64,000 nucleotides of DNA from Candidatus Zhuqueibacterota bacterium (GTDB lineage Bacteria > SM23-31 > JBHPGK01), in assembly GCA_042570605.1 (NCBI GenBank), contig JBHPGK010000001.1, positions 8,644 to 72,643 on the forward strand. Reading direction: 5' to 3'. Position numbers and translations under genes: made by a program. Each line of letters opens with the position of its first letter. The stretch's first letter is position 1. Positions 7,198 to 44,935 of the stretch are shown one piece after another. The notes beneath the pieces were generated by a model. The model did not search any database. It was not told the DNA's origin and saw nothing but the letters and a program-made list of their open reading frames with translations.

Positions 7198-7228
7198 AAG
7201 GAGGACATTGCTCAATGTCCTCTTTTTA
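7198..7228. terminator. Hairpin plus T-run, terminator-like palindromic repeat (GGAGGACATTGCTCAATGTCCTCTTTTT).
   Basis: It is a perfect 9-bp stem followed by T5. Near-identical copies occur at 42231-42260, and a variant at 42088-42118. Confidence 0.4.
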
Positions 7229-26412: not shown

Positions 26413-26440
26413 ATTATTTTATTGTTTTTAGAGTGTTATC

Positions 26441-27283: not shown

Positions 27284-27295
27284 ATTTTTTAAATT

Positions 27296-28135
27296 TTACA
27301 GAATTTTAATATGTATAATTTCCCCCGTTTCAGGGTGGTAATAAATAGTACATTTAATTGTAAATCCACGTTCGACCCATGAAAATACAATTCCTTTTAA
27401 ATAATAGGTCAGGAAATAATTTTCTTCATAATCTACAAATAGTTCAAAGCCGTCCTTTAATTCAAAACTGTCATTAATTGAGAAAGTATGTTTCTCCGGG
27501 TACGGAAAAGAAGACCAGAGTGGGGCATTTATTTCAAAAGTATGACCAATTGTATTGTTGATCATGCGGCTCAAAAATGCATTATCAGGAATATCTATTT
27601 CAACATCGGGAATAAGAGAAGATATTATTCTGGTCAATTGCCCGGATGAACTTATATAGAACTCAATAGACTGTATAAGAACAAACACGCAATCTATTTT
27701 ATTTAACCTTTTCTGGATAAAACGCATATAGAAAGATCCTGTATCGCTGTATCTAAAGATATTATACAACTCCAGGTTTTCAACTGAGCAGCCGAACAGG
27801 TCCTGCCATTTCTCATAAAATTCAAGAATTTCGTCAATTAACTCAGTCTGGTTTAATAATACCGCGGGATCGGTAATAACTACAGGAAGATTGTTATTAA
27901 ATTTTGCATAAGTCAAGTATGAAGTTGATTTTATGAAGCGTGTTTTTTCAGTATCAGGTTCTGCGTTATATAAAGTCAGGAACTCAGCCCATCGCTCTTT
28001 GATATTATTATCAATTCTTGGATCAAAAGCAGTAATCACAGGATTAGAAGAGGTGTTTATATTTTCTCCGGGTGAGAAAATATCCGAGCAGGAAAAAATC
28101 AACAAAAATAATATACAAATAATGATCTTTTTCAA
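27296..28135 (-). CDS. Paralog 3 of the tandem lipoprotein family.
   Basis: It has an FSCS lipobox and WQDLFGCSVENLE and YYHPETGEI motifs. Confidence 0.6.
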   Translation of the reverse strand: MKKIIICILFLLIFSCSDIFSPGENINTSSNPVITAFDPRIDNNIKERWAEFLTLYNAEPDTEKTRFIKSTSYLTYAKFNNNLPVVITDPAVLLNQTELIDEILEFYEKWQDLFGCSVENLELYNIFRYSDTGSFYMRFIQKRLNKIDCVFVLIQSIEFYISSSGQLTRIISSLIPDVEIDIPDNAFLSRMINNTIGHTFEINAPLWSSFPYPEKHTFSINDSFELKDGFELFVDYEENYFLTYYLKGIVFSWVERGFTIKCTIYYHPETGEIIHIKIL

Positions 28136-28173
28136 GAGAGTCTCCTTTTAAGGATCATTTTTGAAAACAATTT

Positions 28174-29004
28174 TTAATTAGAATTTATTAACACTATCTC
28201 CCCCGTTTCAGGGTGGCAGTATACTGAATAGGTACTCGAGCCGTCCTGTTCAATAACATTTACGCATTTTAAAAAATATACATAATATTCTAATTCCGTT
28301 CTCTCAACATATACATTAAAATTCTCGCTAACCTCGTACCGGTCATCCTCAGTAAAGACCCGCACTACTTCGCCTGAATTCGGCGGATACACATAAGAAT
28401 ACCCGATAATATTTGACAGTATTTTATCATGGTCATACCTGTCAGGAACGGTAAGACCAAGGTCGGGAACAAGGGAATTATACAAATACCTGAAATTACC
28501 TGAATCGGTCACACCAATTACTATCTCGGGATTAAGTATAAAGGAAACATCCTGACCGTTCAGTTTTTTTTGAATAAAACTTATAGTAAATAAACGAAAA
28601 TCTGACCGGTATTCGAATTTATACATAATAAGACTTTCCGCTCCCGTTCCGAACAAGCCTTTCCATGTATCCAGGAATTCCAGTACTTTCTCGATAACTG
28701 CGTCCCGGTCATAAGCAATAAGAGTATCAGAAATGATGCGCGGCTGAGTCGCCCAGAAATGTATGTCATCGATATACGATGTCACCGGATTAAAATCCAT
28801 TGTAACATAACCGTCCTGAGACATATTATGCTGAGTAAGAAATTCAGACCATTTTTCCCGGATCTGTTCATCCCGGTACTCACTGAAAACGATCTTGACC
28901 GGATTATTTGAGTAGGAATATTCTTCATTAAGGTCCAATGACCGTTTTGAACAGGAGAAAACAAGAAATAGTGTTAAATTAAGGATAATATTTCTTCTTG
29001 ACAT
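28174..29004 (-). CDS. Paralog 4 of the tandem lipoprotein family.
   Basis: It has an FSCS lipobox and a YCHPETGEIV motif. Its 5' end overlaps the upstream paralog by about 26 nt, so the start is uncertain. Confidence 0.55.
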   Translation of the reverse strand: MSRRNIILNLTLFLVFSCSKRSLDLNEEYSYSNNPVKIVFSEYRDEQIREKWSEFLTQHNMSQDGYVTMDFNPVTSYIDDIHFWATQPRIISDTLIAYDRDAVIEKVLEFLDTWKGLFGTGAESLIMYKFEYRSDFRLFTISFIQKKLNGQDVSFILNPEIVIGVTDSGNFRYLYNSLVPDLGLTVPDRYDHDKILSNIIGYSYVYPPNSGEVVRVFTEDDRYEVSENFNVYVERTELEYYVYFLKCVNVIEQDGSSTYSVYCHPETGEIVLINSN

Positions 29005-29848
29005 AAATTATCTCCCCCGTTTCAGGGTGGCAGTAAATGACAAATCCCCATATTGAATTGCCAGTGTCCTTGACTTCAATTCCCTTGAGAAAATACATAT
29101 TATAAAAGGTTTCTTTTCTTTCAATATGTATTTCAAATCCATCTCTTATTTTATGCAGGTTTCCTGTATTTATTTTAAATGTGTTGTAGCTGTGCATATT
29201 ATTAATAGAGTGCCCGATTATACTTTTCATAATTTTATCCATATTACATTCTTTTGGAAATTCAGGATAGTCATTTAAAAAAATAGTATTCCAGAATCCC
29301 GATAATTCGCCGGTTTCTTTGATTGAAAATATGATACCGGGCTGGTCTATGAAAGGAACTTCCCTTCCCCCTATCCCATACTGCCTGAAATTAATTCTGA
29401 ATTGTTTATCCTCCTCGTAATATTCACTGCTATATACTCTAAAATTTGCATTAACTGAACCAAAAAGGTCACTCCATTCAAATAAAAAATCAATCAATCT
29501 GTCTTCAAGTATTTCTTTGTTTTCTGGATTAAACTCCTCATTAAAAATAACAGGTTTATAATCATTAAAATGTGATGATTCAAAATAAAATGTTACCGGA
29601 TCAAAACGAAAGTTCCCTTTATAATTATCAGGAATATTATAGGCACTTAAAAAATCTGTAAATCTTTCCTGTACTATGAGGTTTATTTCGCCACTGGCTT
29701 TTAGCTGGAAAGGATTCTCAAAATATTCCTTATCTTCAGTTCCATTGATATTTGAACAGCTCAAAAAACAAAACAAAACCACAGACAATACAATATTATC
29801 AAACATTGTTTCAAAAAATTTGTCGGTAATTTTGTAAAAAATTTTCAT
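28979..29848 (-). CDS. Paralog 5 of the tandem lipoprotein family.
   Basis: It has an FLSCS lipobox, WSDLFG and YCHPETGEII motifs. The internal Met at 29806 is a possible start. Confidence 0.55.
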   Translation of the reverse strand: MKIFYKITDKFFETMFDNIVLSVVLFCFLSCSNINGTEDKEYFENPFQLKASGEINLIVQERFTDFLSAYNIPDNYKGNFRFDPVTFYFESSHFNDYKPVIFNEEFNPENKEILEDRLIDFLFEWSDLFGSVNANFRVYSSEYYEEDKQFRINFRQYGIGGREVPFIDQPGIIFSIKETGELSGFWNTIFLNDYPEFPKECNMDKIMKSIIGHSINNMHSYNTFKINTGNLHKIRDGFEIHIERKETFYNMYFLKGIEVKDTGNSIWGFVIYCHPETGEIIYVKKKYYP

Positions 29849-29888
29849 GCTTCAAAAATCGGTTTTATCATTATCAAACAAAAGAGAA

Positions 29889-30767
29889 TCACCACCCTAC
29901 ATACATAATTTCCCCGGTTAATGGATGACAGTAAATTGTAAAAGGGATCCATGGCTCTTCTCTATAATCCACATTTTGTAAATATTCGACAGCTTTAACC
30001 ACATAAATTAATATAGCATTACCTTCATATTTAGTTAAAACAGAGTAACCATCCTTAAATCGAAAGTTGTCATTCTCATTTAATATATATAATTGAGACC
30101 ATTCACCATAAACGGCTTGAGAAGTAATATTTTCAAGTATTTTTTCCTTATTAAAGTAAGGGGGAATTTCAAGGTATACATCAGGAATGAGATCATTCCT
30201 TATTCCTGATAAAAAGCCGTAACAGTCTAAACTTATATATAAACTTCTGTCATATAATATGTTAACAGGGATTCCATTGATTTTTTTCTGAATAAAACGA
30301 ACATTGATCGATCCTTCATCACCAAATGAAATCTCTTCAATCTCCAGGTTATTTGCATCACAACCAAAGAGATCTTCCCACTTATCAACAAAATGGGTTA
30401 TTCTATTAAAAACCACTGCGGTATCAGTACATGATAATGTATCTCTAAATATTCTCGGTTTATCTTTATCAGTTATATACACATTACCCAAATATGAAGA
30501 TATTATATTTGGATTGAATATCATTTCTAATCCTCTGCACTCATATTCAGATAAAAATTGATCCCATTTTTCATAAAATTTGTCTTTCCTTTCTTTATCA
30601 TATGTTATTATAGCCGGATTAGCAGGCAAATTATTTTCGCCTGTTGGTCCATACAGATCAGAACAAAAATTGAATAAAGTTATAAAAATAAACAGGGATG
30701 AAATCAGCCTATTAGATGAGAAAAACCTTCGGAAGAGTTTTAATACCCCTTGCATTTTTTTCTTCAC
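29889..30767 (-). CDS. Paralog 6 of the tandem lipoprotein family.
   Basis: It has an NFCS lipobox and WEDLFGCDANNLE and YCHPLTGEIM motifs. Confidence 0.55.
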   Translation of the reverse strand: MKKKMQGVLKLFRRFFSSNRLISSLFIFITLFNFCSDLYGPTGENNLPANPAIITYDKERKDKFYEKWDQFLSEYECRGLEMIFNPNIISSYLGNVYITDKDKPRIFRDTLSCTDTAVVFNRITHFVDKWEDLFGCDANNLEIEEISFGDEGSINVRFIQKKINGIPVNILYDRSLYISLDCYGFLSGIRNDLIPDVYLEIPPYFNKEKILENITSQAVYGEWSQLYILNENDNFRFKDGYSVLTKYEGNAILIYVVKAVEYLQNVDYREEPWIPFTIYCHPLTGEIMYVGW

Positions 30768-31372
30768 CCGGGTTAATTACGAAAAATAAGCCCTTCTAAT
30801 AATATAGACGAAAAAAAATTCAAAAGGTAAATATTATTTTTTATTTTTGTAATTGGTTTAGAGCGAACAGAACTGTCCGGTAAAAACAAAAATTTATTTT
30901 TACTATCATTGCGAAGCGTCCCGATCCCGCTAAGCGGGAGGGACATCGAAGCAATCTCACTGTTCGGAGAAACTGACGATAAGATTCTTCTCCCCCAAGT
31001 TCTCGGGGGAATATAGGATGGGCGTGGCTATTAATTACAGATTCTCAATCAACAGACTGTGTGAAAACGGTATAAAAATAAGTACAAACGTATCATGAAG
31101 GAGTTCCATCCCAAGAGTTGAGATAGGGATGACTGAAACAATCTCATAATATATTTAATAATAATACCTCAGCGGTGAGATTGCTTCGTTGCTACGCGCC
31201 TCGCTATGACAGTAAAAATATTAAAATTATATAAAATCCTGCATTTTCACACAGTCTGCAACTCGGGAATAACAGTATTTGACGCAATATCAAGTAAAAA
31301 CTGGTTTTCCAAAGAATAAATTGGGAAATTGGCCTAAATTTGTTAAATTGAATCTTTAAATTTTGAGGAGAT

Positions 31373-31807: not shown

Positions 31808-34444
31808 TTAAAACCAGGCTTTTAATGTAACGATCCTTTTATTGGGAACATAAAGATTTACAGAATTACCTTTATTTATACTTAATTCTTCAATTTTATC
31901 TTCTTTAAGATCGACATTCTCAATTTTTTTCAGGTCTTTGTAAAATGTGATCTTCCCTTTGAGTTTCCTGTTCGATATATTGTAAAACCTGACAATAAGA
32001 GCTTCATCATTTTCAGCTCTTTTAATTGTGCTTACAACCAGTTCCTCAGGTTCAACTCTGACAAAACTCAGGTCCAGCGGCAGTTCACCATCAGACTTGT
32101 CAATGTTCTTGGTTATGATAGGCGAACAGGACTGAAAAGCCAGCTGATAGCTTTTCGATTCGAACAGGTCACCGTCATGAGGAATTATTGAATAATGAAA
32201 ATGATAATCGCCAAGACACTGAGCTTCCGGTGTGGGGATAGCGGGTCCCGCATGTCCTTTCCTTGTCATAAGGTCGTCCCTTGAAAGCCATCCGACTGAC
32301 CGCAGGAGTGTGATCATAATTGCGTGTTTGTTCTTATGGGGGACCATCTCATATTCTCTTAATCCTCTTGCAGCAACACATAAACCGAATTTCCCGTTAT
32401 TGATATCCACGAACTTGTGAAAATTCTTTGTCGGCGAGGGGGACTCCGCCCAGTCTTTTTTTACGGGGATGTCAATGTCCCTTTCAAGTACGGTAAAATG
32501 ACCCCCGGCAAATGCTTTCTGGACAGAAACATTAGCGGGGAAAGAAACCCTTATCCTGTGATCTTTTGCCTTGTTCGCAACCTCGGTACGGATATCTATT
32601 TTCCGGGATTCGGATTTCAGTGATATATATGAGGTAACCGGGCATATGACAATTTTGTTGCTTCTGGATTTCCTGTCCATCGATAGTGACGCAGGTATTG
32701 CAAGCTCTGAAGTTACTTTGAAGATCGCCTCAAGCTGATTAAACGACTGCAGACGCATTTTCACATTGCTCAGATTCGAGTAAAATTTAATCGAATTTTT
32801 TATTGGAGAATAATTATATTCATCACCGGCATCTTCTGAATCTTCAAACAGATTTAATCCTTCAAAGATTTTACCTGTTTTCTTATCGAGAATACTTAAT
32901 GAACCGTCCTTTTTTATTCTCAGGGAAAGAAATTTGTTTTCTGCTCCGTCTGATATTAGCTTAAGGTCGGTTTCAAGTGCTTCGGGTTCTCCTTCAAAAA
33001 TATCGAATACCCGGTAACCGCAGGGCGGAATATTTTTTGCCTTTAAAATAATGTCATCTTCTACAACATCCTCAAAATAATTCAGATCGACAACCGTCCG
33101 TTTATCTGATTTCAATTTCAGGTATTCCACCTCGTTCCCTTCGGAGTCAACGATCCTGTATACAAATTCGTTATCCGGTTTTGTTCTTTTAAATCGCACT
33201 TTCGCTCTTAACACATCCGTTATTTCCCAGTTATGCGGATTAAAAATAACAAACGGATCACCTTTCAGAGAAGATGTATTAATACCTTTTCCAAGATCAC
33301 TTATCGAATTCCTGAGCAGCCTGTTGGCGATCTGCAGGGACTGCTGAAATCTCGGCTGCATTTCCCTGTGGATCTGGTCAATGCCGCAGCCGCATATATC
33401 ATCATGAGGATGATTTTTCAAAAGCGTTTTCCATCCTTTTATCAGGAAATCATACGGGTATTCAGAACCGTTAACCCATGCAAACGCAGATATCGGTTCT
33501 ACATATTTCTCATACGTATTTTCTATTTTATCATTAAAAAGTTTCAAATAAACTCGGGTTGAATATACTCCCTGCAGAATAGAAGTGTTTTTACCGTAAG
33601 TTAACTCACCTGAAATCGATTCCAGGATCGGATCATCGGATATAACGGTTTCCTGGTATTCTTCAATTGATCCGTGTATAACTGTCATATCATTAAATTT
33701 CTTATTCGCCTTTTTAATGATCTCCGGGAGCTCCGGCTGCGGGAACTGGTGGTCAAATCCGTTATAAATGATCACATTGTTTGTGCGCAGGTGGGGGCTC
33801 AACTCATCCACTTCCTCTCTTATCTGTTTTAAAGCTTTATCAAAACTGAAATCAGCGGGATCAACATTTGAGAAAACTTTTCCATAGCCGAGGTTCGCCC
33901 CGTTCACATAGTGCCTGAACTGGTATAGTGCAAGTATTTCTGTACCGTCCGGGGTTTTCCAGACAAATTCAGTTCCCAACTGCTCGGCTTCATCACCCAT
34001 TCCTCTGGAAAAAACGACAGTAGGAAGGCCAAATCCCTTTAATATCTGGGGAAGCTGTTCAATATGACCGAATGAATCCGGAATATACCCGGCATTCAGG
34101 GGTTCACCAAATTCTTTTGAAACTTTGCGCCCTATCAGAAGGTTTCTTAACAGCGCCTCACCGCTTACAATAAATTCATCTGCCAAAACATACCAGGGGC
34201 CTATAAAGATCCTCTTCTTTTCTACAAGCTCTTTCAGTTTTTCCTTCATATAGGGTTTTACAGCGAGGTAATCCTCGAGTAAAATTGTCTGACCATCAAG
34301 CATAAAAGACTTGTATTCCGGATCCTTCTCGAGTATATCGACAAGGTAATCGATCATTTCGACAAGTTTCATCCTGTAATCCTGAAAAGGAAGATACCAA
34401 GCCCTGTCCCAATGAGTATGGGGGACAATAAAGACCTTTAACAT
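31808..34444 (-). CDS. Glycoside hydrolase family 38 alpha-mannosidase.
   Basis: It has the GH38 N-terminal signature VPHTHWDRAWY, and its 878 aa length is consistent. Confidence 0.8.
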   Translation of the reverse strand: MLKVFIVPHTHWDRAWYLPFQDYRMKLVEMIDYLVDILEKDPEYKSFMLDGQTILLEDYLAVKPYMKEKLKELVEKKRIFIGPWYVLADEFIVSGEALLRNLLIGRKVSKEFGEPLNAGYIPDSFGHIEQLPQILKGFGLPTVVFSRGMGDEAEQLGTEFVWKTPDGTEILALYQFRHYVNGANLGYGKVFSNVDPADFSFDKALKQIREEVDELSPHLRTNNVIIYNGFDHQFPQPELPEIIKKANKKFNDMTVIHGSIEEYQETVISDDPILESISGELTYGKNTSILQGVYSTRVYLKLFNDKIENTYEKYVEPISAFAWVNGSEYPYDFLIKGWKTLLKNHPHDDICGCGIDQIHREMQPRFQQSLQIANRLLRNSISDLGKGINTSSLKGDPFVIFNPHNWEITDVLRAKVRFKRTKPDNEFVYRIVDSEGNEVEYLKLKSDKRTVVDLNYFEDVVEDDIILKAKNIPPCGYRVFDIFEGEPEALETDLKLISDGAENKFLSLRIKKDGSLSILDKKTGKIFEGLNLFEDSEDAGDEYNYSPIKNSIKFYSNLSNVKMRLQSFNQLEAIFKVTSELAIPASLSMDRKSRSNKIVICPVTSYISLKSESRKIDIRTEVANKAKDHRIRVSFPANVSVQKAFAGGHFTVLERDIDIPVKKDWAESPSPTKNFHKFVDINNGKFGLCVAARGLREYEMVPHKNKHAIMITLLRSVGWLSRDDLMTRKGHAGPAIPTPEAQCLGDYHFHYSIIPHDGDLFESKSYQLAFQSCSPIITKNIDKSDGELPLDLSFVRVEPEELVVSTIKRAENDEALIVRFYNISNRKLKGKITFYKDLKKIENVDLKEDKIEELSINKGNSVNLYVPNKRIVTLKAWF

Positions 34445-35679
34445 AATTGGAATCTCCTATTACATAATAAAATAAAATTAGCTCACAAACGAGAGTTCTA
34501 GCACATATAAAATTATAAACTTCAGGAGAATCAAGTTAGTAGTAGTTACCATAAGAAAGTTAAAAAAAATATTTTCCGTTGTCAAATGATTTTATTTTAA
34601 ATTTTTTCTTTTTTTTACACTTGTGTCCGGCAATTATTAAATAGGGATTTTTCTCCAGGTAAACCGGTACTGGAATAACACAGAAGTTGAGGTCCTTAAC
34701 GTCATTCTGAACGCAGTGAAGAATCTCACTGCAAACAGCTTCGAACAGTAGGATTGCGTACTCGTCGCGCAAAAGGTAGTGACTTCCCCGAGCAATCTCA
34801 CCGATAAGGTATTGTCATTAATTTAGTTATGAGATTACTTCAGCCATTCCGACACATCGAGACTCCTTCGTAATAACACCTCTGTACATGTTTTTTACAG
34901 TTTTTTCACAAAGGGACTACTTCGTAGCACAAAGTGATCACTTCGTGATAGGATCTCATAAATAGAAGAGAAGATTCCGATCCCGAACATTCTGGACGGA
35001 ATGACAGTTCTGCACTTTAATCGCTTTGAAAAACGAGTTGGGAAACACGCCCGCAGGCTGGAATGACGGATAAGTACTTCTTTTTAACATTAACAAGAAT
35101 GTTCCATCCTGAGAACACGGATAAATGGTCTTAAAATACATCAAGAAATAAAGGTAGAACAAGTATCTACTCTATCAAAAATTGGAATAATTAAAAAATT
35201 GAAAAGGTTCAGTATGGAAAGAAAAATTTGGACAACCCCCAAAATTTACATGGTTATAAGGTATATCTTATTGATAATGTAAATACTTATGGGAAATATA
35301 GACATGAAAAATAATTGAAGCGAAGATGTCATTATCCGCCAGAGGTGGATCCCGCCATCTGCGGGACGAGGAGCGAAGCGACGTAGTAATCTGCCGGGAT
35401 TTTAGGATTTGTCTTTGTGGTAGTAGATTGCTTCTCCCGGTAAACCGGGATCGCAATGACATTTATGCCGTGGCAGGAGATTCTCCCCAGCACTCGGGTC
35501 CCCGGAATTACAGCCATTATTAAAAAATGGGGGTAGTCCAATAAGGAAATAAAAATATCTTGATTAAATGATATTTTTATGTTAATATTAAATTTTAAAA
35601 TCAGCATATCTAACTACATGAATATTAATAAGTTATAACCCAAACGCATAATACAGGTACAATTTCCCCGGAGGGATTA

Positions 35680-36729
35680 ATGTCTGAAAAAATGAAAGCA
35701 GTTGCAAAAACGAAAAGTTCACCCGGAGCAGAACTAATTGAAACGGCTATTCCGGAGGTCAGAGAGGATGAAGTCCTTGTTAAAGTTAAGGCAACATCGA
35801 TTTGCGGCAGTGATGTCCATATTTATAATTGGGACAATTGGGCTCAAAGCAGGGTCAAAACTTTTCCCAGAATAATGGGGCATGAATTCGCAGGTGAAGT
35901 TGTTGAAGTGGGAAATAATGTAAAAAAGATCAAGGCGGGAGATCTCATATCTGCAGAAACCCATATCCCCTGCCAGAGCTGTATTCAGTGCCTGACAGGA
36001 CAGATGCATATCTGCGGAAACCTGAAAATACTGAGCCTCGACACCAACGGATGTTTTGCCGAATATGCTGTCGTTCCGGAGATCGTCTGCTGGGTAAATG
36101 ACAAAAGCATCCCATTTGAATTCGCAAGTGTTCAGGAACCTTTGGGAAATGCAGTTTACTGCTCACTTGTGGAACCGGTTACCGGAAAAACTGTCCTGAT
36201 TATGGGAGACGGACCCACCTCCCTTTTTGCAGCGGGTGTCTGTAAAGTGGCAGGAGCATCACAGGTTTACGTCGTAGGTTTAAGCCCTTACAGGCTGGAG
36301 ATCGCAAAAAAAATGGGTGCAGACCTTGTACTGAATAATAAAACAGACAATACTGTTGAAATAATACTGGACAAAACTGACGGCGTTGGTGTAGATGTTG
36401 TACTCGAAATGGCAGGTGCACAGGAAACAATCACACAGGGATTTCAACTGGTCAGGAAAGGAGGCAGATTTTCAGCATTCGGTATTGCTGCAAAACCTGT
36501 TGAACTCGATATAAATAATGCAGTAATTTTTAAGGGGGTTACCGTTTATGGTATCAACGGGCGGCTAATGTTTGATACCTGGTTCAAAGTAAGAAATCTT
36601 CTTGCTTCAAAAAAGCTGGATATCTCGCCCGTTGTCACCCATAAGCTCAAACTGGAGGACTTCGAAAAGGGATTTGACCTTATGCGGACTTTTCCTCAGA
36701 AATGCGGTAAGGTCGTCTTGTTCCCTTAG
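35680..36729 (+). CDS. tdh: L-threonine 3-dehydrogenase.
   Basis: It is a Zn-ADH fold with ICGSDVHIYNWDNW and GHEFAGEVVEVG. It is close to E. coli Tdh throughout and has a GGAGG SD. Confidence 0.9.
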   Translation: MSEKMKAVAKTKSSPGAELIETAIPEVREDEVLVKVKATSICGSDVHIYNWDNWAQSRVKTFPRIMGHEFAGEVVEVGNNVKKIKAGDLISAETHIPCQSCIQCLTGQMHICGNLKILSLDTNGCFAEYAVVPEIVCWVNDKSIPFEFASVQEPLGNAVYCSLVEPVTGKTVLIMGDGPTSLFAAGVCKVAGASQVYVVGLSPYRLEIAKKMGADLVLNNKTDNTVEIILDKTDGVGVDVVLEMAGAQETITQGFQLVRKGGRFSAFGIAAKPVELDINNAVIFKGVTVYGINGRLMFDTWFKVRNLLASKKLDISPVVTHKLKLEDFEKGFDLMRTFPQKCGKVVLFP

Positions 36730-36765
36730 GGTAAACAGAACATCATAAAAAACGGGGGGAATCTC

Positions 36766-37974
36766 ATGTACGGTAAATTTAAAAGGTTTCTTTTAACTGA
36801 ATTGGAAACTATTAAAAATGCCGGTTTATACAAAGAAGAAAGGGTATTAACTTCTCAGCAGGGTGTCCAGATTGAAACCGACAAAGGATTAAAAGTCTTA
36901 AATTTTTGTGCTAATAATTATCTTGGTCTTTCAACTGATCCAAGAGTCATTTCTGCCGCTGAAAAAGTCTGCAAAAAATGGGGCTATGGTTTATCATCTG
37001 TAAGATTCATTTGCGGTACTCAACAGGTTCATAAGGAATTAGAAAAAAAATTGAGCGAATTCCTGAGTACAGAAGACACTTTATTATATTCCTCATGTTA
37101 CGATGCAAACGGCGGAGTATTTGAACCGCTGCTTAATGAAGATTGTGCAATAATCTCAGACGAACTTAATCATGCTTCAATTATCGATGGCGTCAGGTTA
37201 TGCAAAGCAAAACGTTTCAGGTATAAAAACAATAACATGAGCGACCTTGAAGACAAGATCAAGGAAGCGGCGGATTCAAAATATAAGATCATTGCGACTG
37301 ACGGTGTATTCTCTATGGACGGCATTATTGCTAAAGTAGATGAAATTTGTGACCTTGCAGATAAATACGACGCAATGGTCCTGGTCGATGACTCCCATGC
37401 TACAGGTTTTATAGGACAATCGGGAAGAGGAAGCCATGAACACTGCGGAGCCGTAGGAAGAGTGGATATAATTACCACAACTTTCGGCAAAGCCCTGGGA
37501 GGAGCATCCGGGGGATGCGTATCCGGAAGAAAAGAAATAATTGAATATTTAAGACAGAAATCCCGGCCTTATCTCTTTTCAAATTCTCTCGCCCCGATTA
37601 TCGCCGGTACAACCCTGGAAGTACTCGATATGCTCTCAAATACCACAGAATTAAGAGACAAACTTGAGGAAAACACAAAATATTTCAGAAAAGGCATTGA
37701 AGACTCCGGTTTTAAGATCGTGCCGGGTAATCACCCCATTGTCCCTATATTATTCGGTCATCTGCCGGACGATGCAAAACTCGCTCGTGATTTTGCCGGT
37801 GAAATGTTGAAAGAAGGTATTTATGTTATTGGATTTTCCTATCCTGTGGTGCCTAAAGGGAAGTCCAGAATCAGAGTTCAGATCAGTGCAATGCATACAA
37901 AAGAGCATATTGACTTTGCAATTGATAAATTTATTAAAACAGGAAACAAATTTGATATTTGGAATAGGAATTGA
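36766..37974 (+). CDS. kbl: Glycine C-acetyltransferase (2-amino-3-ketobutyrate CoA ligase).
   Basis: NFCANNYLGL, SVRFICGTQ, ATDGVFSMDG and TFGKALGG (PLP Lys) are present. It matches E. coli Kbl closely across its length. Confidence 0.9.
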   Translation: MYGKFKRFLLTELETIKNAGLYKEERVLTSQQGVQIETDKGLKVLNFCANNYLGLSTDPRVISAAEKVCKKWGYGLSSVRFICGTQQVHKELEKKLSEFLSTEDTLLYSSCYDANGGVFEPLLNEDCAIISDELNHASIIDGVRLCKAKRFRYKNNNMSDLEDKIKEAADSKYKIIATDGVFSMDGIIAKVDEICDLADKYDAMVLVDDSHATGFIGQSGRGSHEHCGAVGRVDIITTTFGKALGGASGGCVSGRKEIIEYLRQKSRPYLFSNSLAPIIAGTTLEVLDMLSNTTELRDKLEENTKYFRKGIEDSGFKIVPGNHPIVPILFGHLPDDAKLARDFAGEMLKEGIYVIGFSYPVVPKGKSRIRVQISAMHTKEHIDFAIDKFIKTGNKFDIWNRN

Positions 37975-38344
37975 TATAATAGAAATAGACAGGATTTCAC
38001 GCGAACTCTCAAAAGACAACGGTTTCAAAGAAAAAATATATACTTCACTGGAAATCGAGACCGGAGAATCCTTTGACAATCCGGCAAAGTACTTCGCCGG
38101 ATGTTTTAGTGCAAAAGAAGCTTTTTTCAAGGCACTGGGTACCGGATGGCGCTATGGAATGACATTTAAAGAGATAGAGACATTCCAGGAAAATGAAAAA
38201 ACATTAAGCCTGAGGGTATCCGGAAAAGCAAAAGATTTTATTAACAATAATCTGATAAAAAAGACATGTATCACTCTGGCAATTACAGATAAATTTGCTG
38301 CCGCCCTGGTTGTTTTGGAGCTTGAGGATACAGAAGACCGCTGA
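37952..38344 (+). CDS. acpS: Holo-[acyl-carrier-protein] synthase (4'-phosphopantetheinyl transferase).
   Basis: GIGIDIIEIDRI...FSAKEAFFKALGTG matches AcpS. The track ORF begins inside kbl, so the real start is probably the TTG/ATA region near 37952. Confidence 0.65.
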   Translation: MIFGIGIDIIEIDRISRELSKDNGFKEKIYTSLEIETGESFDNPAKYFAGCFSAKEAFFKALGTGWRYGMTFKEIETFQENEKTLSLRVSGKAKDFINNNLIKKTCITLAITDKFAAALVVLELEDTEDR

Positions 38345-38506
38345 CATTCATTTTTTCCCTTCACTTCGAAAATCTTCATTAAGTGATAAAAATCACAATA
38401 TTTGTTAATATTTTCACAATATTTCTTGTTATAAAAAGTATTTTTTTTTAACTTACTATCCTTTTTCATTAATCAAACCCGGAGTAGAATAAACAGGGAG
38501 AAGCAA

Positions 38507-40213
38507 ATGTCAAATATCGGTTCATATGATGAAATAATTAAGGATTTTAAATGGTCAATATCGGAGAGTGAACTTGGTTACAATAATGGTGACGTTATAA
38601 ATATCGGCTGGTATTGTTCCGACAGAGTATGTAAAATGGGAAAATCTGAAAAAACTGCGCTGATCTGGGAAGGACACGGAGGGATTGAAAAAAGTTACAC
38701 TTTTAATGATGTCAGGCTTGCCAGTAATACAATTGGCGATTTTCTAAGAAACACCGGTGTAAAAGAAGAAGACCGGGTCTGCCTGTTTATGGACAGGATA
38801 CCTGAGCTTTACCTGGGATTTTTAGGTATTTTAAAGATCGGAGCCATTGCACAGCCTCTGTTTTCTGCATTTGGAGATGAATCACTATTCGTCAGGCTGG
38901 AAAATGCGCAAACGAGGGCAATTATTACCCAGAGAAAGCATGTTTCAAAGGTCAGAAAAATCATAGACAGGCTGCCTTTTCTCGAATATATCATTATCGT
39001 GGATCATGACGGAAAAAAGCTGCTACAGGAAAGGGAAATAACATTCTCCCTTGCCGAGGCTGAACCTGTCGAAGACCTGGAAATTTATCCTGCAAAGGCA
39101 GAGTCGCCGTCAGTTCTTCATTATACATCCGGTACCACCGGACAGCCTAAAGGAGTACAGAATGTCCATTATTCACTAATTTCACAATATCTTACCACAA
39201 AATGGGTCCTGGACCTGAGGGATGAGGACATATACTGGTGTACTGCCGACCCGGGATGGGTAACAGGGACCTCTTACGGTATAATCGGTCCATGGAGCAT
39301 GGGTATCACACAATGTGTTCTCGATGCCGGTTTTTCTGCGGATACATGGTATAAATTTATTGAAAAAAACAGGATAACCGTATGGTATTCAGCACCTACC
39401 GCGATCCGGTCGTTGATGAAAGCAGGTGAAGAAATTGTCAGACAGTATGATCTGTCTTCTCTGAGGCATCTTGCAAGTGTAGGAGAACCTCTTAATGCCG
39501 AAGCTGTCGTCTGGTCGGAAAAAGTGTTCAACAGACCATTTCTGGACACTTACTGGCAGACCGAAACAGGCTCGATCATGCTCACGAATTTCCCGGGTAT
39601 GAAGGTAAAACCCGGTTCCATGGGGAAATCATTTCCCGGTATCACTGCCGCAGTTCTTGATCCGGAAACTTTTGAACCTATCACCGAACCCGGAAGAATT
39701 GGTTTAATAGGATTTAAACCTGGGTGGCCTGCGATGATGAGAGGTTACTGGAACAATGAAGAAACTTACAGAAAAAAATTCGAGAATGGCTGGTATATCC
39801 CTGGTGACAGGTCAAGTATAGATAATGAGGGTTATTTCTGGTTCTCAGGCAGAGATGATGATGTTATAAATACCGGAGGACACCTTGTGAGTCCATTTGA
39901 AGTGGAATCTGCACTGCTTGAACATGAAGCTGTTGCCGAGTCGGCTGTTGTAGCCAAACCTGATGAAGTTAATATGGAAGTTGTAAAAGCCTTTGTTACT
40001 TTAAAACCGGGTTTTGAGGCAAATGCAGACCTCGAATTAAAGATTATGAACTTTATTCGAAAGAAGCTTTCTCCACTGGCAATGCCTCAGGAAATCGAAT
40101 ATGTCGATTCCCTTCCTAAAACAAGGAGCGGAAAAATAATGAGGAGACTGCTTAGGGCGAAGGAATGGGGAGAAGAAACTGGAGATACTTCCACACTCGA
40201 GGATGATGAATAG
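38507..40213 (+). CDS. Acs-family (acetyl/propionyl-CoA synthetase-like) AMP-forming ligase.
   Basis: YTSGTTGQPKGV, YWQTETG and a C-terminal LPKTRSGKIMRRLLR are present. These are hallmarks of the acetyl-CoA synthetase subfamily rather than long-chain FadD. Confidence 0.8.
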   Translation: MSNIGSYDEIIKDFKWSISESELGYNNGDVINIGWYCSDRVCKMGKSEKTALIWEGHGGIEKSYTFNDVRLASNTIGDFLRNTGVKEEDRVCLFMDRIPELYLGFLGILKIGAIAQPLFSAFGDESLFVRLENAQTRAIITQRKHVSKVRKIIDRLPFLEYIIIVDHDGKKLLQEREITFSLAEAEPVEDLEIYPAKAESPSVLHYTSGTTGQPKGVQNVHYSLISQYLTTKWVLDLRDEDIYWCTADPGWVTGTSYGIIGPWSMGITQCVLDAGFSADTWYKFIEKNRITVWYSAPTAIRSLMKAGEEIVRQYDLSSLRHLASVGEPLNAEAVVWSEKVFNRPFLDTYWQTETGSIMLTNFPGMKVKPGSMGKSFPGITAAVLDPETFEPITEPGRIGLIGFKPGWPAMMRGYWNNEETYRKKFENGWYIPGDRSSIDNEGYFWFSGRDDDVINTGGHLVSPFEVESALLEHEAVAESAVVAKPDEVNMEVVKAFVTLKPGFEANADLELKIMNFIRKKLSPLAMPQEIEYVDSLPKTRSGKIMRRLLRAKEWGEETGDTSTLEDDE

Positions 40214-40306
40214 AAGAAGGAAGGCTGAGGCTAAGACTAAGGCTGAGAAAATACCCGGAATATTAAATGAAAAATATATATAACTGTTTAATAAAGGAGA
40301 CATAAA

Positions 40307-40555
40307 ATGGACGATATGAAGGATGTAGTATTAGAATATGTAATAGAAGAATACGTAGAAGATGAAGATGAGGAAATCACTTATGACTCTCCCCTTATAT
40401 CAGGAGGAATTGTTGATTCATTCTCGATGGTCTCTCTGAAAAGATTCCTGGAAAATAAATACAGCATCTCGATACCGGATGAAAAGGCAACCCCGGAAGC
40501 TTTTGATACGGTGAACAGTATTGTTTTGCTGGTAAATGAATTTTTAAATAAATAG
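40307..40555 (+). CDS. Small acidic carrier protein (DltC/aminoacyl-carrier-like ACP, 82 aa).
   Basis: GGIVDSFSMVSLKRFLE resembles the DltC GIIDSFQTVGLL phosphopantetheine-attachment site. It has an acidic N-terminus. Confidence 0.6.
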   Translation: MDDMKDVVLEYVIEEYVEDEDEEITYDSPLISGGIVDSFSMVSLKRFLENKYSISIPDEKATPEAFDTVNSIVLLVNEFLNK

Positions 40556-40639
40556 TAAAGATAATCAACCCGGATACCATAAAAAAACGAATTAAAGATA
40601 TATACTAAATTTAAATTCAATTCATTCAGGAGATAAATT

Positions 40640-41887
40640 ATGAGTTTTAGTGAGAAAACAAGATCGATATACCGGGAACAACTGGAGGGCATAAAAAAAG
40701 CCGGGATTTTTAAGGTTGAAAGATTTATACATTCCGAACAGGCAGCCGACATTGAAGTTGAATTTCCTTCCGGTTCAAATTTAAAAAAAGTGATCAATAT
40801 GTGTGCCAACAATTATCTGGGTCTTTCCAGCCACCCGGAAGTTATTAAAGCGGCTCATGAAGGTCTGGATAAACGCGGTTACGGAATGTCTTCGGTCCGC
40901 TTTATATGCGGAACACAGGATATTCATAATGAGCTGGAATCAAAAATGACGGAGTTTTTGGGTACGGAAGCTACCATTCTCTTTCCTTCCTGTATGGATG
41001 CAAATGCCGGTGTATTTGAAGCGATCCTGACAAACGAGGATGTAATAATATCCGACCGTCTTGTACATGCTTCACTGGTCGACGGCATCAGGCTGTGCAG
41101 CGCCGCACATGACACAATTAAACACTCGAACATGGATCATTTAGAGAAAAAGCTCCAGCTTCATGCGGATAAACGGCTGAAGCTAGTGGTTACCGATGGT
41201 GTATTCTCAATGGACGGGGATACTGCAAAACTGGATGAGATGGTAGACCTGTGCAAAAAGTATGATGCAATGCTGCTTGTTGATGATTCCCATGCAACCG
41301 GATTCATAGGTAAAACAGGACGAGGCGTTCACGAAAAATACGGTCTTTTAGGTAAGATCGATATTATTACCACGACTTTCGGTAAAGCTCTCGGCGGAGC
41401 ATCGGGAGGATGTGTTTCCGGAAGGGCGGAAATCGTTGAAATGTGCAGGCAGAAAGCAAGACCATACCTGTTTTCCAATACTATAGCTCCGGTGGTTGTA
41501 TCAGGAGTTTTAAGAGTTTTAGAAATCCTTTCGGAAACCACCGAACGCAGAGACAAACTGGAAAAGAACAGCGAATACTGGCGCAAAGGGCTGACTGAAG
41601 CCGGATTATTGATAAAAGAGGGTGACACTCCAATTGTCCCAGTAATGTTTTTTAATGCAAAACTTTCGCAGGATTTTGCTAAAGACCTTTACGAGGAAGG
41701 GATATATGCAATAGGTTTCTTTTTTCCGGTTGTGGCTCAGGGGCAGGCAAGAATAAGGACGCAGATATCGGCAGCTCATGAAATACATCATCTCGATAAA
41801 GCGCTCGACGCATTTACAAAAGTCGGTAAAAAATACGATATTTTAGGAAAAACCAAACAGGAAATTATCGGGAAATACGGAATGTAG
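40640..41887 (+). CDS. Second Kbl-type alpha-oxoamine synthase (glycine C-acyltransferase paralog).
   Basis: NMCANNYLGL, SVRFICGTQ, VTDGVFSMDG and TFGKALGG are present. It is clearly Kbl-like but diverged from the upstream kbl (for example Cys to Met in the substrate pocket region, FFFPVVAQGQARIR). Confidence 0.8.
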   Translation: MSFSEKTRSIYREQLEGIKKAGIFKVERFIHSEQAADIEVEFPSGSNLKKVINMCANNYLGLSSHPEVIKAAHEGLDKRGYGMSSVRFICGTQDIHNELESKMTEFLGTEATILFPSCMDANAGVFEAILTNEDVIISDRLVHASLVDGIRLCSAAHDTIKHSNMDHLEKKLQLHADKRLKLVVTDGVFSMDGDTAKLDEMVDLCKKYDAMLLVDDSHATGFIGKTGRGVHEKYGLLGKIDIITTTFGKALGGASGGCVSGRAEIVEMCRQKARPYLFSNTIAPVVVSGVLRVLEILSETTERRDKLEKNSEYWRKGLTEAGLLIKEGDTPIVPVMFFNAKLSQDFAKDLYEEGIYAIGFFFPVVAQGQARIRTQISAAHEIHHLDKALDAFTKVGKKYDILGKTKQEIIGKYGM

Positions 41888-42087
41888 AAATTTAGTCTAC
41901 CGGACGAAATTAACTACAGATAAAAAAAATACTGGTAAAATGAAAAAATGTTTTTTATATTATTAACAGCCTAATGTAATGTCATATGGCAGGGGGTATG
42001 TTTGATAGGGAGAAAGGACCGGTAATTTAACCGGTCTTTTTTCATTTTAGACGCAAAAGTAGAAAAGTATTTGTAAGAAAGCGCACA

Positions 42088-42118
42088 TTACTCAATGTCC
42101 GCTTTTTTGTATAATTAT
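42088..42118. terminator. Terminator-like hairpin plus T6, a variant of the GGACATTG..CAATGTCC repeat.
   Basis: gcgcacattactcaatgtccgctttttt is present. Confidence 0.35.
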
Positions 42119-42230
42119 TTCAACATACATTTCTTATTATTTTAAATACATATGCGAGGGCATTAATGCCCTCTCTTAATGCCGGAAGGTGCTTAAAACC
42201 ACCTTATAATAAAAGTCTTAAATACTAATA

Positions 42231-42260
42231 GAGAGGACATTGAGCAATGTCCTCTTTTTG
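42231..42260. terminator. Terminator-like hairpin plus T5, a copy of the repeat at 7198-7228.
   Basis: gagaggacattgagcaatgtcctcttttt is near-identical to the 7198 copy. Confidence 0.4.
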
Positions 42261-42339
42261 TAAATCAATAATTTCCAAACGCAGATAGACTATCCGTCAC
42301 AAAGTGATCACTTTGTGAAAAAACAATAAAAACTAAACG

Positions 42340-42620
42340 AATTGATGTCATTCCCGCAGAAGTGCGTGTTGCTCAACTCTTTTTTTGAAAGAGATAAGAG
42401 TCCGGAATTGTCATTTCAAACGTAGTGAGAAATCTAAACAAGCCTTTCTTAGACCCTGAACCAAGTTCAGGGTGACAGGCTTGGAGTTGAGCCACACACA
42501 CGGAAGCGGGAATATCATGGAGTTTTTACTTCGTGGGGGTAGATTGCTTTCCTGGTAAACCGGGATCAGGACTTGCCTCGCAATGACACTATTGAGCGTG
42601 TCATTCCCGACTCCGATCCA
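42340..42620. repeat. Composite repeat region containing MITE-like nested palindromes and a GTAGATTGCTTYCCYGGTAAACCGGGATC module.
   Basis: It holds a cctgaaccaagttcagggtgaca copy, a gtgcgtgttgctcaactc / gagttgagccacac inverted repeat, and a module shared with 35419-35466 and 44823-44930. Confidence 0.55.
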
Positions 42621-42736
42621 CGCCGGAGGCGGACACGCGGGAATCTCCTACCATAAAAACAAATGTATCTAAGTTTTCACTAAGTGATCACTTAGTGTCA
42701 AACAGTCTCAGGGCAGCAGCACAATATATACATACA

Positions 42737-44413
42737 TCACTTCAACAATACAAGCTTCTTCGACCGTATAAAATCCACCGCTTTAAACCTGTATATGTAA
42801 ACACCGCTGGAGACCGGAAAACCTGAATTATTTGTGCCATCCCAAAACACAGAATGAGGGCCAGCATAATTGAATTGATTGTTCAAAAGCGTTTTTATTT
42901 CTTGACCGAGGATATTGTATATTTTAAGGATTACTTCAGTTTCTTTTTTTAATTCGAACTTTATCTTAGTCCCAGAATTAAAAGGATTTGGGTAATTCTG
43001 ATATAGGATATGTTCGTCAGGCACATTATAATCAACAATAGTCACCCATCGTCTCTTTGAACTTTCGTAATATTTACCGTCTGTATCTTCAAGGTAATTT
43101 ACAACAGTGTAAACATATTTCTTACCTTTTTCAACATCCGTATCTAAAAATTCAATAATGCTTGAATTAATTTCTTCTTTTGGTATAGTGTCAAGAAGGG
43201 TAATATTATCTATATATCTTAAATAGTCTTCAGTATATTCAGTTTTGTAAATTTTATATCCTGAAAAACCTGACCTTTCTGTAAACGGATTAATATAATT
43301 TATTTCATTAACATTCCATGTCAGTTCGATACCGCTGCTTCTCTTATTGTAAGTTACTTCAGGAGAGGCAAGAATGGGCGATTTCCACCCGCTTCTGTAA
43401 GTCCTCCTCGCCCATTTAAAGTTTTCAACCATGTTGTCCAAACCTTCCCCCACTCCAAAAGCGAATACAATTTTAGCTGTATCTCCAGGTGCGATATTAT
43501 AAGGCCCCCAACCGATATAAATATAACCAACTATAGTAGGTGAAGTTGAACCTTGCATGTAGGTAGAAATATTATTCTCCATTTTTTGAATAATTTCCGC
43601 GTAATCGCTATCGTAAATATTTTGATAACCCCAAAAATAATAAGCCGGTGTATGCTCAGGATATTTTTCATATTCTGTAGCAGGAGAATAAATTGAACAA
43701 GTACCAAAATAACCGGGACATTCTCCGTTTGGACCTCCCGCATCATCAGGTGAATAGTCAGGACTATCTCCATCGTAGGCATAAGCTATATAAATTTTTT
43801 CATCAGGAATAAACCCTGCATCATTACCTATGAATAAGTCTGTATGGTCATCCTTATAAAACCGTTTTACTTCTGGTTGTTCGACAGGTGAGATATCAAC
43901 ACAAAATTTTCTGTGCAGACAAAGTCCTTTTACCGTATCTATTCCTTCATTAATTAGAATGTATTCGAAAATAATAAAATCGTTCCTGAATTCTTCGGAA
44001 AATCCATAAGTATTAAATAATCCTCGTATAAAAGGTCTATCATTATATTGTTCTGTGTTTCTGTCAAAAAAGTCTGTTCTTGTATCAAGGTCTGATACTG
44101 CTGTTTTATCATCTATCACAGATTTAATATTTAAAGTGTATTCAGGCATAAATTGATTTAAGATAACATGTCTATATTCATTATTATCAATATAATAAAT
44201 TCGGGTATCAGCATAACTGGAATATATAGAATTGTTGTTGTATTTGGGATAATATATAAAGGCACCCCAATCACCATTATATAGACCAAAATCCCATAAA
44301 TAGACCTCAAAACTGCCTACATCATAATGAAATTGATTATTTTGAGAGTTTGACGGAACTGAACATACAAAAAGACTGATTAACACTACAATTTTTAAAA
44401 GATGTCTTTTCAT
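42737..44413 (-). CDS. Secreted protein with a T9SS C-terminal sorting domain (function unknown).
   Basis: There is a signal peptide. The C-terminus YQNYPNPFNSGTKIKFELKKETEVILKIYNILGQEIKTLL...GVYIYRFKA is a canonical T9SS type-A CTD. Confidence 0.65.
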   Translation of the reverse strand: MKRHLLKIVVLISLFVCSVPSNSQNNQFHYDVGSFEVYLWDFGLYNGDWGAFIYYPKYNNNSIYSSYADTRIYYIDNNEYRHVILNQFMPEYTLNIKSVIDDKTAVSDLDTRTDFFDRNTEQYNDRPFIRGLFNTYGFSEEFRNDFIIFEYILINEGIDTVKGLCLHRKFCVDISPVEQPEVKRFYKDDHTDLFIGNDAGFIPDEKIYIAYAYDGDSPDYSPDDAGGPNGECPGYFGTCSIYSPATEYEKYPEHTPAYYFWGYQNIYDSDYAEIIQKMENNISTYMQGSTSPTIVGYIYIGWGPYNIAPGDTAKIVFAFGVGEGLDNMVENFKWARRTYRSGWKSPILASPEVTYNKRSSGIELTWNVNEINYINPFTERSGFSGYKIYKTEYTEDYLRYIDNITLLDTIPKEEINSSIIEFLDTDVEKGKKYVYTVVNYLEDTDGKYYESSKRRWVTIVDYNVPDEHILYQNYPNPFNSGTKIKFELKKETEVILKIYNILGQEIKTLLNNQFNYAGPHSVFWDGTNNSGFPVSSGVYIYRFKAVDFIRSKKLVLLK

Positions 44414-44935
44414 TTTAGTATTATTAGTTAAATAGGTTTGAATATTTGATATAAATTTTACCCCATGTTTTTTATATCGGTTTTTCCTTAATAGGGAGAT
44501 TTATATATTAATGACGACTCAATCAAAGTAAAAGTAACAATTATTATAAATTTTTTGTTATTTGTGTAGACTTATCTCGAAAAGTATAGTTTATATCAGG
44601 CTTATTCAGAACTTTATTAATGACTCCATAATAGTAAATCTCATAATCTAATTCAAGTTATTTTCTGCTTCGTCATTCCAGCGAAGGTGTGTGTGGCTTA
44701 ACTCTTTTGTATAATAGAAATAAAAACACTGCGTGTCATTCGCGGTGCTATGGAACATCCTACACCTATACCCAGGGACAGGCTTTCTCCCCCCTGAGTA
44801 CTCGGGGAAATCTCATGAATTATGTACTTCGTGGGGGTAGATTGCTTTCCCGGTAAACCGGGACAGGCTGTTAGTTCCTGATCCCGGTAAACCGGGATCA
44901 GGACTTGCCTCGTAATGACAGTTCTGGCTCTGCCT

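Follow-up and report, generated by a model that had tools for sequence, protein, structure and literature searches.

A conserved Acs-type ligase, carrier protein and Kbl-type oxoamine synthase that may hold acetyl groups on a protein in threonine, glycine and acetate metabolism

Introduction

The locus considered here is a block of six genes in a stretch of 64,000 nucleotides of contig JBHPGK010000001.1, from a Candidatus Zhuqueibacterota bacterium (the whole stretch is called the window below). Its core encodes a phosphopantetheinyl transferase (PPTase) of the AcpS type, an AMP-forming ligase, a small carrier protein and an alpha-oxoamine synthase (AOS). The closest described system comes from sphingolipid synthesis. 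In Caulobacter and other Rhodobacteria the ligase AasR acylates only its own carrier protein AcpR, and not coenzyme A (CoA), while the serine palmitoyltransferase prefers acyl-AcpR (PMC9386255). A dedicated ligase of the ANL type, a specialised carrier and an AOS are thus found in both cases, with the same logic and gene neighbourhood. However, the Rhodobacteria system joins a long-chain fatty acid to serine on the way to a sphingolipid base, whereas here the ligase is of the acetyl-CoA synthetase (Acs) type with an acetate pocket, the AOS belongs to the clade of Kbl (2-amino-3-ketobutyrate CoA ligase) and the setting is that of L-threonine 3-dehydrogenase (Tdh) and Kbl. The carrier here resembles PltL, PigG and DltC, AasR is expected to be of the long-chain FadD type, and neither the ligases nor the carriers of the two systems are expected to be orthologous.

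The components also have described relatives outside this arrangement. The kbl-tdh pathway of Escherichia coli works with free CoA and has no carrier, PPTase or ligase; the Tdh and the first Kbl of the window (Kbl1) are ordinary members of it, and the second, Kbl-like enzyme (AOS2) keeps all the catalytic residues but forms a separate clade in which K147 and K362 have mostly become non-basic. With Acs the ligase shares the fold, the acetate pocket, the catalytic Lys609 and the hinge, Pat-like and Sir2 genes lie near the module, and the use of Acs in reverse to form ATP has a precedent; it differs in having leucine in place of R526, a remodelled A8 loop and a carrier gene behind it, and the acceptor that we propose is a protein. 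The pairs DltA/DltC, PltF/PltL and PigI/PigG provide the nearest relatives of the carrier by sequence and by structure, and an AcpS-type PPTase acts on DltC. Those carriers, in contrast, hold D-alanine or proline and feed teichoic acid or pyrrole pathways, while the ligase here has an acetate pocket and no DltB/DltD or pyrrole genes are found among the conserved neighbours. In biotin synthesis the AOS BioF can use the thioester of an acyl carrier protein (ACP). The BioW/BioF pair is also comparable in that the activation of an acid supplies an AOS with its thioester (PMC9544090), but AOS2 falls below the bioF equivalog cutoff, the ligase pocket is acetate-sized and no other biotin genes are nearby.

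What would be new at this locus is that the known logic of ligase, carrier and oxoamine synthase is combined with acetate, an Acs-type ligase and a Kbl-type AOS in a threonine and glycine setting. From gene identity, gene arrangement and residue comparison we infer all the enzymatic steps in which the carrier takes part, as well as their direction. On these grounds a carrier-linked acetyl chemistry, running one way or the other, is probably correct. We suggest more tentatively that a private, protein-bound thioester pool couples the cleavage of a keto acid to the formation of ATP from AMP and pyrophosphate, bypassing CoA, or that in reverse ATP is spent on making threonine from glycine and acetate. 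A preliminary description of this DNA had not recognised the combination as a described system and, in a literature search without most subscription journals, we likewise found no paper on an acetate:carrier ligase or on a carrier-dependent Kbl.

Gene order and spread of the module

The block lies at 35680-41887, where six genes follow each other on the plus strand, and all their open reading frames (ORFs) were confirmed:

35680..36729, + strand: tdh, Zn-dependent L-threonine 3-dehydrogenase of the medium-chain dehydrogenase/reductase (MDR) type, 349 aa; NF003808 418.7 bits (cutoff 380), TIGR00692 435.9 bits, Pfam ADH_N and ADH_zinc_N
36766..37974, + strand: kbl1, canonical glycine C-acetyltransferase (2-amino-3-ketobutyrate CoA ligase), 402 aa; NF005394 620 bits (cutoff 460), TIGR01822 616 bits (cutoff 493)
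37952..38344, + strand: acpS, holo-(acyl-carrier-protein) synthase, about 130 aa; TIGR00516 73.5 bits (cutoff 59.8), Pfam ACPS 60.8 bits
38507..40213, + strand: Acs-type AMP-forming acetate-activating ligase, 568 aa, proposed acetate:[carrier protein] ligase; NF003313 743.2 bits (cutoff 729)
40307..40555, + strand: stand-alone carrier protein, 82 aa, with a putative phosphopantetheine Ser38 in GGIVDSF; conserved motif and predicted carrier fold
40640..41887, + strand: AOS2, Kbl-clade alpha-oxoamine synthase, 415 aa, proposed acetyl-S-carrier-dependent glycine C-acetyltransferase; NF005394 561 bits (cutoff 460), TIGR01822 557 bits (cutoff 493)

The acpS gene sits within an ORF at 37823-38344 in which the AcpS homology begins at residue 44; its start was read from the sequence as the TTG at 37952 (MIFGIGIDI), which overlaps the end of kbl1, stop codon included, by 23 nt.

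We surveyed one genome per species and compared the 80 best loci (L008-L087), taking 18 kb for each. The neighbour counts use crude ORF calls, so that some genes counted as missing may be frameshifts or artefacts of the calls. The ligase gene was directly upstream of the carrier gene in 64 of 70 loci and AOS2 directly downstream of it in 68 of 72, with acpS directly in front of the ligase in 49 of 66. A canonical Kbl was present within 9 kb in 34 of the 46 loci that extended for 7 kb to either side. By our estimate, fewer than 1% of random 18-kb segments, and probably far fewer, would contain a given single-copy gene such as kbl, and this arrangement, conserved across 80 species-level loci, is far beyond chance. 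The PPTase, ligase, carrier and second AOS had been described beforehand as a coherent module, and the conserved order agrees with that: in relatives the ligase, the carrier and AOS2 are not scattered. The wider claim, that the six genes form a unit, stands for the acpS-ligase-carrier-AOS2 core, usually with Kbl1 near it, but not for Tdh, which was within 9 kb in only 8 of the 46 full loci; the complete six-gene block is not universal.

A gene for the carrier was found in the genomes of at least 572 species from about eight phyla (again one genome per species), among them Bacteroidales, Aminicenantes/Acidobacteriota, Zixibacteria, Delongbacteria, Cloacimonadota, Ignavibacteria, KSB1 and Bipolaricaulota. 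More than 8000 relatives are present in the databases, and the best 120 of them, 80-100% identical to the carrier of the window, span KSB1, Zixibacteria, Bacteroidales, Cloacimonas, Aminicenantes, Acidobacteriota and Delongbacteria. Contigs of Bacteroidales, Acidobacteriota and Zixibacteria show the same order, with a ligase of 567-568 aa, a carrier of 81 aa and an AOS of 415 aa. The best 80 genome loci and the best 120 homologues of the carrier and of AOS2 all come from metagenome-assembled genomes or metagenomes, with no cultured host among them, and a tblastn search of the carrier against 72,556 plasmids gave no match. Additional pathway genes conserved between Kbl1 and AcpS were considered and rejected, since the gaps there hold only lineage-specific insertions. 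In Delongbacteria a canonical Kbl (599 bits) comes directly after AOS2; in all eight loci of this group (e.g., L008) the next gene after AOS2 and Kbl, some 2.9 kb from the start of the carrier gene, encodes a large protein (about 1254 aa) whose N-terminus is kinase-like (YEIIRLLGEGGMGNVYLVKD).

The proteins of the module differ in how far they diverge between phyla. Median identities within and between phyla were 84.8 and 81.2% for AOS2, 79.9 and 76.7% for the ligase and 79.1 and 75.0% for the carrier, compared with 82.2 and 60.0% for Kbl1 and 57.9 and 46.8% for AcpS. AOS2 was more conserved than Kbl1 in 98% of 741 matched genome pairs. The nearly equal identity of the ligase, carrier and AOS2 within and between phyla suggests either a lateral spread of the three genes together or saturation under very strong constraint.

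Residue changes around the carrier protein

The ligase carries the motifs YWQTETG and LPKTRSGKIMRRLLR, and its closest solved relative is the 572-aa AcsA of structure 9g79 (E 8.5e-167). We compared 69 orthologues with three CoA-using Acs, 9g79 among them, using the residue numbers of Salmonella Acs. All four residues of the acetate pocket are kept, V310, T311 and V386 in 69/69 ligases and W414 in 67/69, which argues that the acid is acetate and is in keeping with the short acyl group proposed in the preliminary description. K609, D517, R515 and R584 are also found in 69/69. The changes with respect to the three CoA-using enzymes cluster in the A8 loop, where V516D and R526L appear in all 69 sequences and G528S in 67, and where S523 has become glycine in 51 and alanine in 18. 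R526 is one of three conserved arginines (R191, R526 and R584) that matter for the binding of CoA and for the second half-reaction (PMC10455477). This set is incomplete in the ligase: position 526, an arginine in all three CoA-using Acs, is leucine throughout, position 191 is proline, glycine or serine, and R584 is kept. The loss of the loop with R191 and R194 was considered as a sign against the use of CoA and discarded, as 9g79 also lacks the loop; only R526 is discriminating. The enzyme is therefore best described, from these alignments, as one with the acetate pocket kept and the thiol-acceptor loop apparently remodelled, and we propose that the carrier protein takes the place of CoA as the thiol acceptor.

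The carrier itself contains the DSF motif, and the stretch PLISGGIVDSFSMVSLKRF, with Ser38 among its invariant positions, was identical in 32 carrier sequences from several phyla. Its AlphaFold model (pLDDT 90) has three long helices according to DSSP, and Ser38 lies at the N-terminal end of the second. Profile searches give no family assignment, as both the Pfam PP-binding match (17.4 vs 20.8) and the best NCBIfam match (ACP_for_OlsHI, 56 vs 130 bits) are below their cutoffs. By fold and sequence the closest matches are PigG, PltL and DltC, ahead of the fatty-acid ACPs, so that a DltC-like carrier with a modifiable serine, as first suspected, was recovered. PigG, PltL and DltC are charged directly by stand-alone ANL enzymes. 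One of the structural neighbours, 7r49, is a complex of AcpS with DltC, and an AcpS-type transferase that serves a carrier of this kind has therefore a precedent. Membership in the DltC family proper was rejected (NF003464 30.3 bits, cutoff 68; TIGR01688 21.4 bits, cutoff 52), and there is no dltB or dltD among the conserved neighbour clusters.

AOS2 is above the cutoffs of both Kbl equivalogs. Assignment to the other branches of the family was rejected on the curated cutoffs, i.e., to the serine palmitoyltransferase Spt (three equivalogs with 321, 274 and 233 bits vs 640, 500 and 670), to CqsA/LqsA (NF005526, 200.9 bits, cutoff 428), to BioF (TIGR00858, 361.4 bits, cutoff 426.45) and to 5-aminolevulinate synthase (ALAS). 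With these excluded, Kbl chemistry is the default for this enzyme. AOS2 sequences (77) form a monophyletic clade separate from Kbl1, with median identities of 82% among themselves, 54% to Kbl1 and 52% to E. coli Kbl, while Kbl1 is 60% identical to the latter. The second Kbl is therefore diverged, as had been expected of it, and not a simple or recent duplicate of Kbl1; on this comparison it is a separate and unusually conserved clade with invariant substitutions of its own. The best 120 homologues are all exactly 415 aa long.

For the residues of AOS2 we used the numbering of a sequence taken as that of E. coli Kbl, in which K244 and H136 fall at the expected positions. Aligned to it, AOS2 retains the pyridoxal phosphate (PLP)-binding K244 as well as H136, D210, H213, R368 and Val79, the last of which is the residue associated with small amino acids (PMC11906848). 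Three markers are found in 77/77 sequences: F112M, A133R, next to the active-site histidine, and N135V, beside the PLP-stacking His136; Y108F and S109P are also invariant in the clade. Positions 147 and 362 are basic in 100% and 86% of Kbl1-type proteins, respectively, and non-basic in more than 90% of AOS2. There are in addition an N-terminal insertion of five residues and a C-terminal extension of about 13. Within the 14-residue KHSNMDHLEKKLQLH, H162, H167 and H175 (numbers of AOS2 itself) are conserved in 97-100% of the clade where canonical Kbl has Asn, Asp/Glu and Ala; this stretch may bind a metal or serve for docking. The loss of the two lysines, together with basic residues gained elsewhere (e.g., A133R), might reflect the replacement of a cofactor that bears a nucleotide by a partner that is an acidic protein.

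A simpler explanation is that we are dealing with an ordinary acetyl-CoA synthetase and a CoA-dependent Kbl isozyme, and that the carrier serves some other pathway or is a mere conserved neighbour. Both enzymes do exceed the curated cutoffs for acetate--CoA ligase and glycine C-acetyltransferase, the latter being also the name that homologues of AOS2 bear in NCBI and JGI, the ligase keeps R584 and K609, and the 150 best representatives of clusters at 50% identity (from 1.84 billion clusters) included no fusion of the carrier to the ligase or to AOS. Yet the carrier gene lies between the two enzymes in nearly every locus of about eight phyla, with AcpS in front, and no other carrier-using enzyme is conserved nearby. 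Two ordinary enzymes would also have to account for the loss of R526 in every ligase, for the non-basic residues at 147 and 362, and for an AOS2 that coexists with a canonical Kbl as a distinct clade and is far better conserved between phyla (81% vs 60% identity). We consider this explanation improbable.

Neighbouring genes and the metabolic setting

Evidence for the substrate comes from the genes around the module in other lineages. In loci of Zixibacteria, Ignavibacteria and Acidobacteriota an "epimerase-like" short-chain dehydrogenase/reductase (SDR) is encoded directly upstream, sometimes overlapping acpS (translationally coupled). This neighbour is an SDR-type L-threonine 3-dehydrogenase (7ol1, E 5e-131; also 2yy7 and 4yr9), and it takes up that position in L003, L006, L017, L018, L021, L031 and L076. 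Two non-homologous types of Tdh, MDR and SDR, that form the same product, 2-amino-3-ketobutyrate, are thus found beside the module, which ties AOS2 to this compound rather than to the synthesis of a lipid or signal. The Zixibacteria loci show the minimal set tdh-acpS-ligase-carrier-AOS2, without a canonical Kbl nearby.

Other neighbours point to acetate. In 16 loci of Bacteroidota the module is directly followed by an AceTr acetate channel (275 bits; e.g., L057:10566-11123), after which come, on the same strand, a thioredoxin/DsbH-like protein (e.g., L057:11139-11666) and a Pat-like protein of 894 aa (e.g., L043:11184-13868), which combines a GNAT domain with a part resembling ADP-forming ACS. 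The Pat-like gene was found in 17 loci, including one of Zixibacteria and one of Aminicenantes, and in the Zixibacteria loci L006 and L007 a Sir2 deacetylase gene follows the module (L006:12234-12977). Pat and CobB (Sir2) are the classical control of acetate-activating Acs, acting through its conserved lysine, and the accessory genes are consistent with an acetate enzyme regulated in this way.

A third AOS paralogue (417 aa, about 35% identical to Kbl1) is encoded directly downstream of AOS2 in some loci of Zixibacteria and Ignavibacteria without a canonical Kbl nearby (L076:10747-12000; also L021, L026, L031 and L032); it is below every NCBIfam cutoff.

The preliminary description had favoured an aminolipid or signal-molecule pathway. 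In this reading glycine would not be the partner of acetyl-S-carrier, which AOS2 would condense with another amino acid or with 2-amino-3-ketobutyrate itself to give a new small aminoketone, pyrazine or signal molecule. The invariant substitutions next to the active site (F112M, N135V, Y108F and S109P) would suit a changed substrate, the third paralogue could be taken in the same sense, and Tdh/Kbl operons are reported to give pyrazines through aminoacetone (PMC9814548). The placement of AOS2 among the Kbl equivalogs and outside Spt, BioF and CqsA argues otherwise, as does the lack of tailoring enzymes, exporters or receptors conserved alongside. An identity of about 80% across phyla, in at least as many species as given above, suits core metabolism better as well. 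We regard a new aminoketone or signal as quite improbable. The lipid or signal pathway finds no support in view of these cutoffs and of the association with Kbl, two kinds of Tdh, an acetate channel and Pat/Sir2-type regulators; primary threonine, glycine and acetate metabolism fits better a module that is so widespread and so conserved.

A carrier-bound acetyl pool and its possible directions

In the mechanism that we propose AcpS would attach phosphopantetheine to Ser38 of the carrier. The ligase would then interconvert acetate, ATP and holo-carrier with acetyl-S-carrier, AMP and pyrophosphate (PPi), and AOS2 would interconvert acetyl-S-carrier and glycine with 2-amino-3-ketobutyrate and holo-carrier. 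Tdh would connect 2-amino-3-ketobutyrate with threonine, and Kbl1 would be a parallel, CoA-dependent branch. By rough reasoning, a private carrier pool would amount to a thermodynamic insulation, since its ratio of acetylated to free form could be driven orders of magnitude away from the acetyl-CoA/CoA ratio. Such a skewed ratio would serve either to make ATP from AMP and PPi against high acetate or to drive an uphill condensation. In the catabolic run, Tdh would oxidise threonine, AOS2 would cleave the unstable keto acid onto the carrier, and the ligase, working in reverse, would release acetate and form ATP from AMP and PPi, the acetate leaving through the nearby channel.

The catabolic direction is weakly preferred because in the window Tdh, Kbl1 and AOS2 are encoded in one tightly packed gene string, with the kbl1/acpS overlap; parallel sinks for a single unstable intermediate would be sensible, and opposing reactions would not. 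Kbl-clade enzymes normally run in the direction of cleavage, which we count in its favour. So do we count the ATP-forming Acs documented in Syntrophus aciditrophicus (PMC4992975, PMC13404658). Several findings pull the other way. As to the carrier as acceptor, there are the score of the ligase above the cutoff of the acetate--CoA ligase equivalog (NF003313) with R584 retained, and the lack of fusions among the representatives compared; the shortened CoA-loop region, common to the ligase and 9g79, is uninformative. As to the direction, there are the low number of loci with Tdh close by, the Pat-like and Sir2 genes, and the NCBIfam label of AceTr, which is that of an uptake transporter. Also, every ANL-carrier pair characterised to our knowledge works in the loading direction. 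Threonine breakdown that yields ATP through the carrier, the full form of our reading, is put forward as a tentative preference.

With the same carrier chemistry running in the loading and condensing direction, acetate would be activated with ATP, and AOS2 would join it to glycine to give 2-amino-3-ketobutyrate and then threonine, through Tdh, or aminoacetone; a highly charged private thioester pool would drive the uphill condensation. DltA/DltC and PltF/PltL load their carriers, and the AOS enzymes that use ACP condense. The set of an AceTr labelled for uptake, a Pat-like protein and Sir2 mirrors acetate scavenging by actP-acs with Pat/CobB. AasR/AcpR is also a loading pair (PMC9386255), and the genes tdh-acpS-ligase-carrier-AOS2 of the Zixibacteria encode exactly the enzymes required. 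A canonical, cleaving Kbl is, however, part of the same gene string in the window and a close neighbour in most full loci; it would split the new keto acid to acetyl-CoA, and the net effect would therefore be that of Acs. No downstream enzyme for aminoacetone is conserved among the neighbour clusters. Threonine synthesis from aspartate is nearly universal, and the hosts are mostly acetate-producing fermenters, neither of which speaks for this direction. We hold it to be possible but rather unlikely.

The two branches could also be joined in a glycine-catalysed acetyl relay. Here acetate would be loaded onto the carrier, AOS2 would pass it to glycine and Kbl1 would cleave the resulting 2-amino-3-ketobutyrate with CoA, the five proteins making up a multi-part acetyl-CoA synthetase. 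The most conserved set (acpS, ligase, carrier, AOS2 and Kbl1), with the acetate channel and the Pat-like regulator, is what such a relay needs. But it would pass through an unstable intermediate, its net reaction would be that of the single enzyme Acs, so that no thermodynamic gain is apparent, and the Zixibacteria loci have Tdh and lack a canonical Kbl nearby. Of the explanations considered, we give this one very little credence in comparison with the catabolic direction.

Surroundings of the operon in the window

The plus-strand island of six genes is flanked by unrelated genes on the minus strand, coding for a GH38 mannosidase, a protein with a type IX secretion system (T9SS) tail and a MacB/HlyD efflux system. 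No known RNA or riboswitch was detected by an Rfam scan of the whole window at gathering thresholds, and a single chance-level match (E<=1) fell within 34300-42800; promoter and terminator scans gave no enrichment with respect to shuffled sequences.

The non-coding flanks of the operon (34445-35679 and 41888-42736) are unusually long and hold dispersed repeats of 40-170 nt with 72-95% identity. Copies are also present in other intergenic regions of the window (7196-7465, 10379-10546, 31126-31185 and 44672-44920), and they have the appearance of a small intergenic repeat family that is not specific to the operon. That the flanking repeats are the ends of a mobile element was rejected for this reason, most of them being dispersed intergenic repeats present elsewhere in the window. 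A perfect palindrome of 20 nt, CACAAAGTGATCACTTTGTG, occurs at 34928-34947, 42298-42317 and 42678-42697, the only three copies in the 64 kb at up to three mismatches; one lies upstream of tdh, in 1.2 kb of non-coding DNA, and two in the 850 nt that follow AOS2. By chance no copy would be expected in the window. The palindrome may act as an operator or be a terminator-like element or the end of a repeat.

Two further features are apart from the operon:

25597-30767, - strand: six tandem paralogous genes (271-292 aa, 26-44% mutual identity), of which two were tested, both without a Pfam match
50429-51454, + strand: another zinc dehydrogenase of the MDR type besides Tdh, with 341 aa and, in the compared part, an identity of about 32% to Tdh

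Implications

If the proposal is correct, the ligase and AOS2 would each be the first of their kind, an acetate:[carrier protein] ligase and a carrier-dependent Kbl. Acs and Kbl would then have carrier-dependent twins that current annotation cannot tell apart from them, and thousands of database entries for acetyl-CoA synthetase and glycine C-acetyltransferase would be mis-assigned. In the catabolic direction the module would represent a new route of substrate-level phosphorylation that bypasses CoA in widespread uncultured anaerobes. The host groups are prominent in anoxic sediments and digesters. Because the module is present in so many species of these groups, models of their threonine, glycine and acetate turnover, and of their ATP yield, could be wrong. 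More generally, the principle by which CoA is the common pool and a carrier protein the insulated one would extend from lipid and natural-product synthesis to central amino-acid metabolism.

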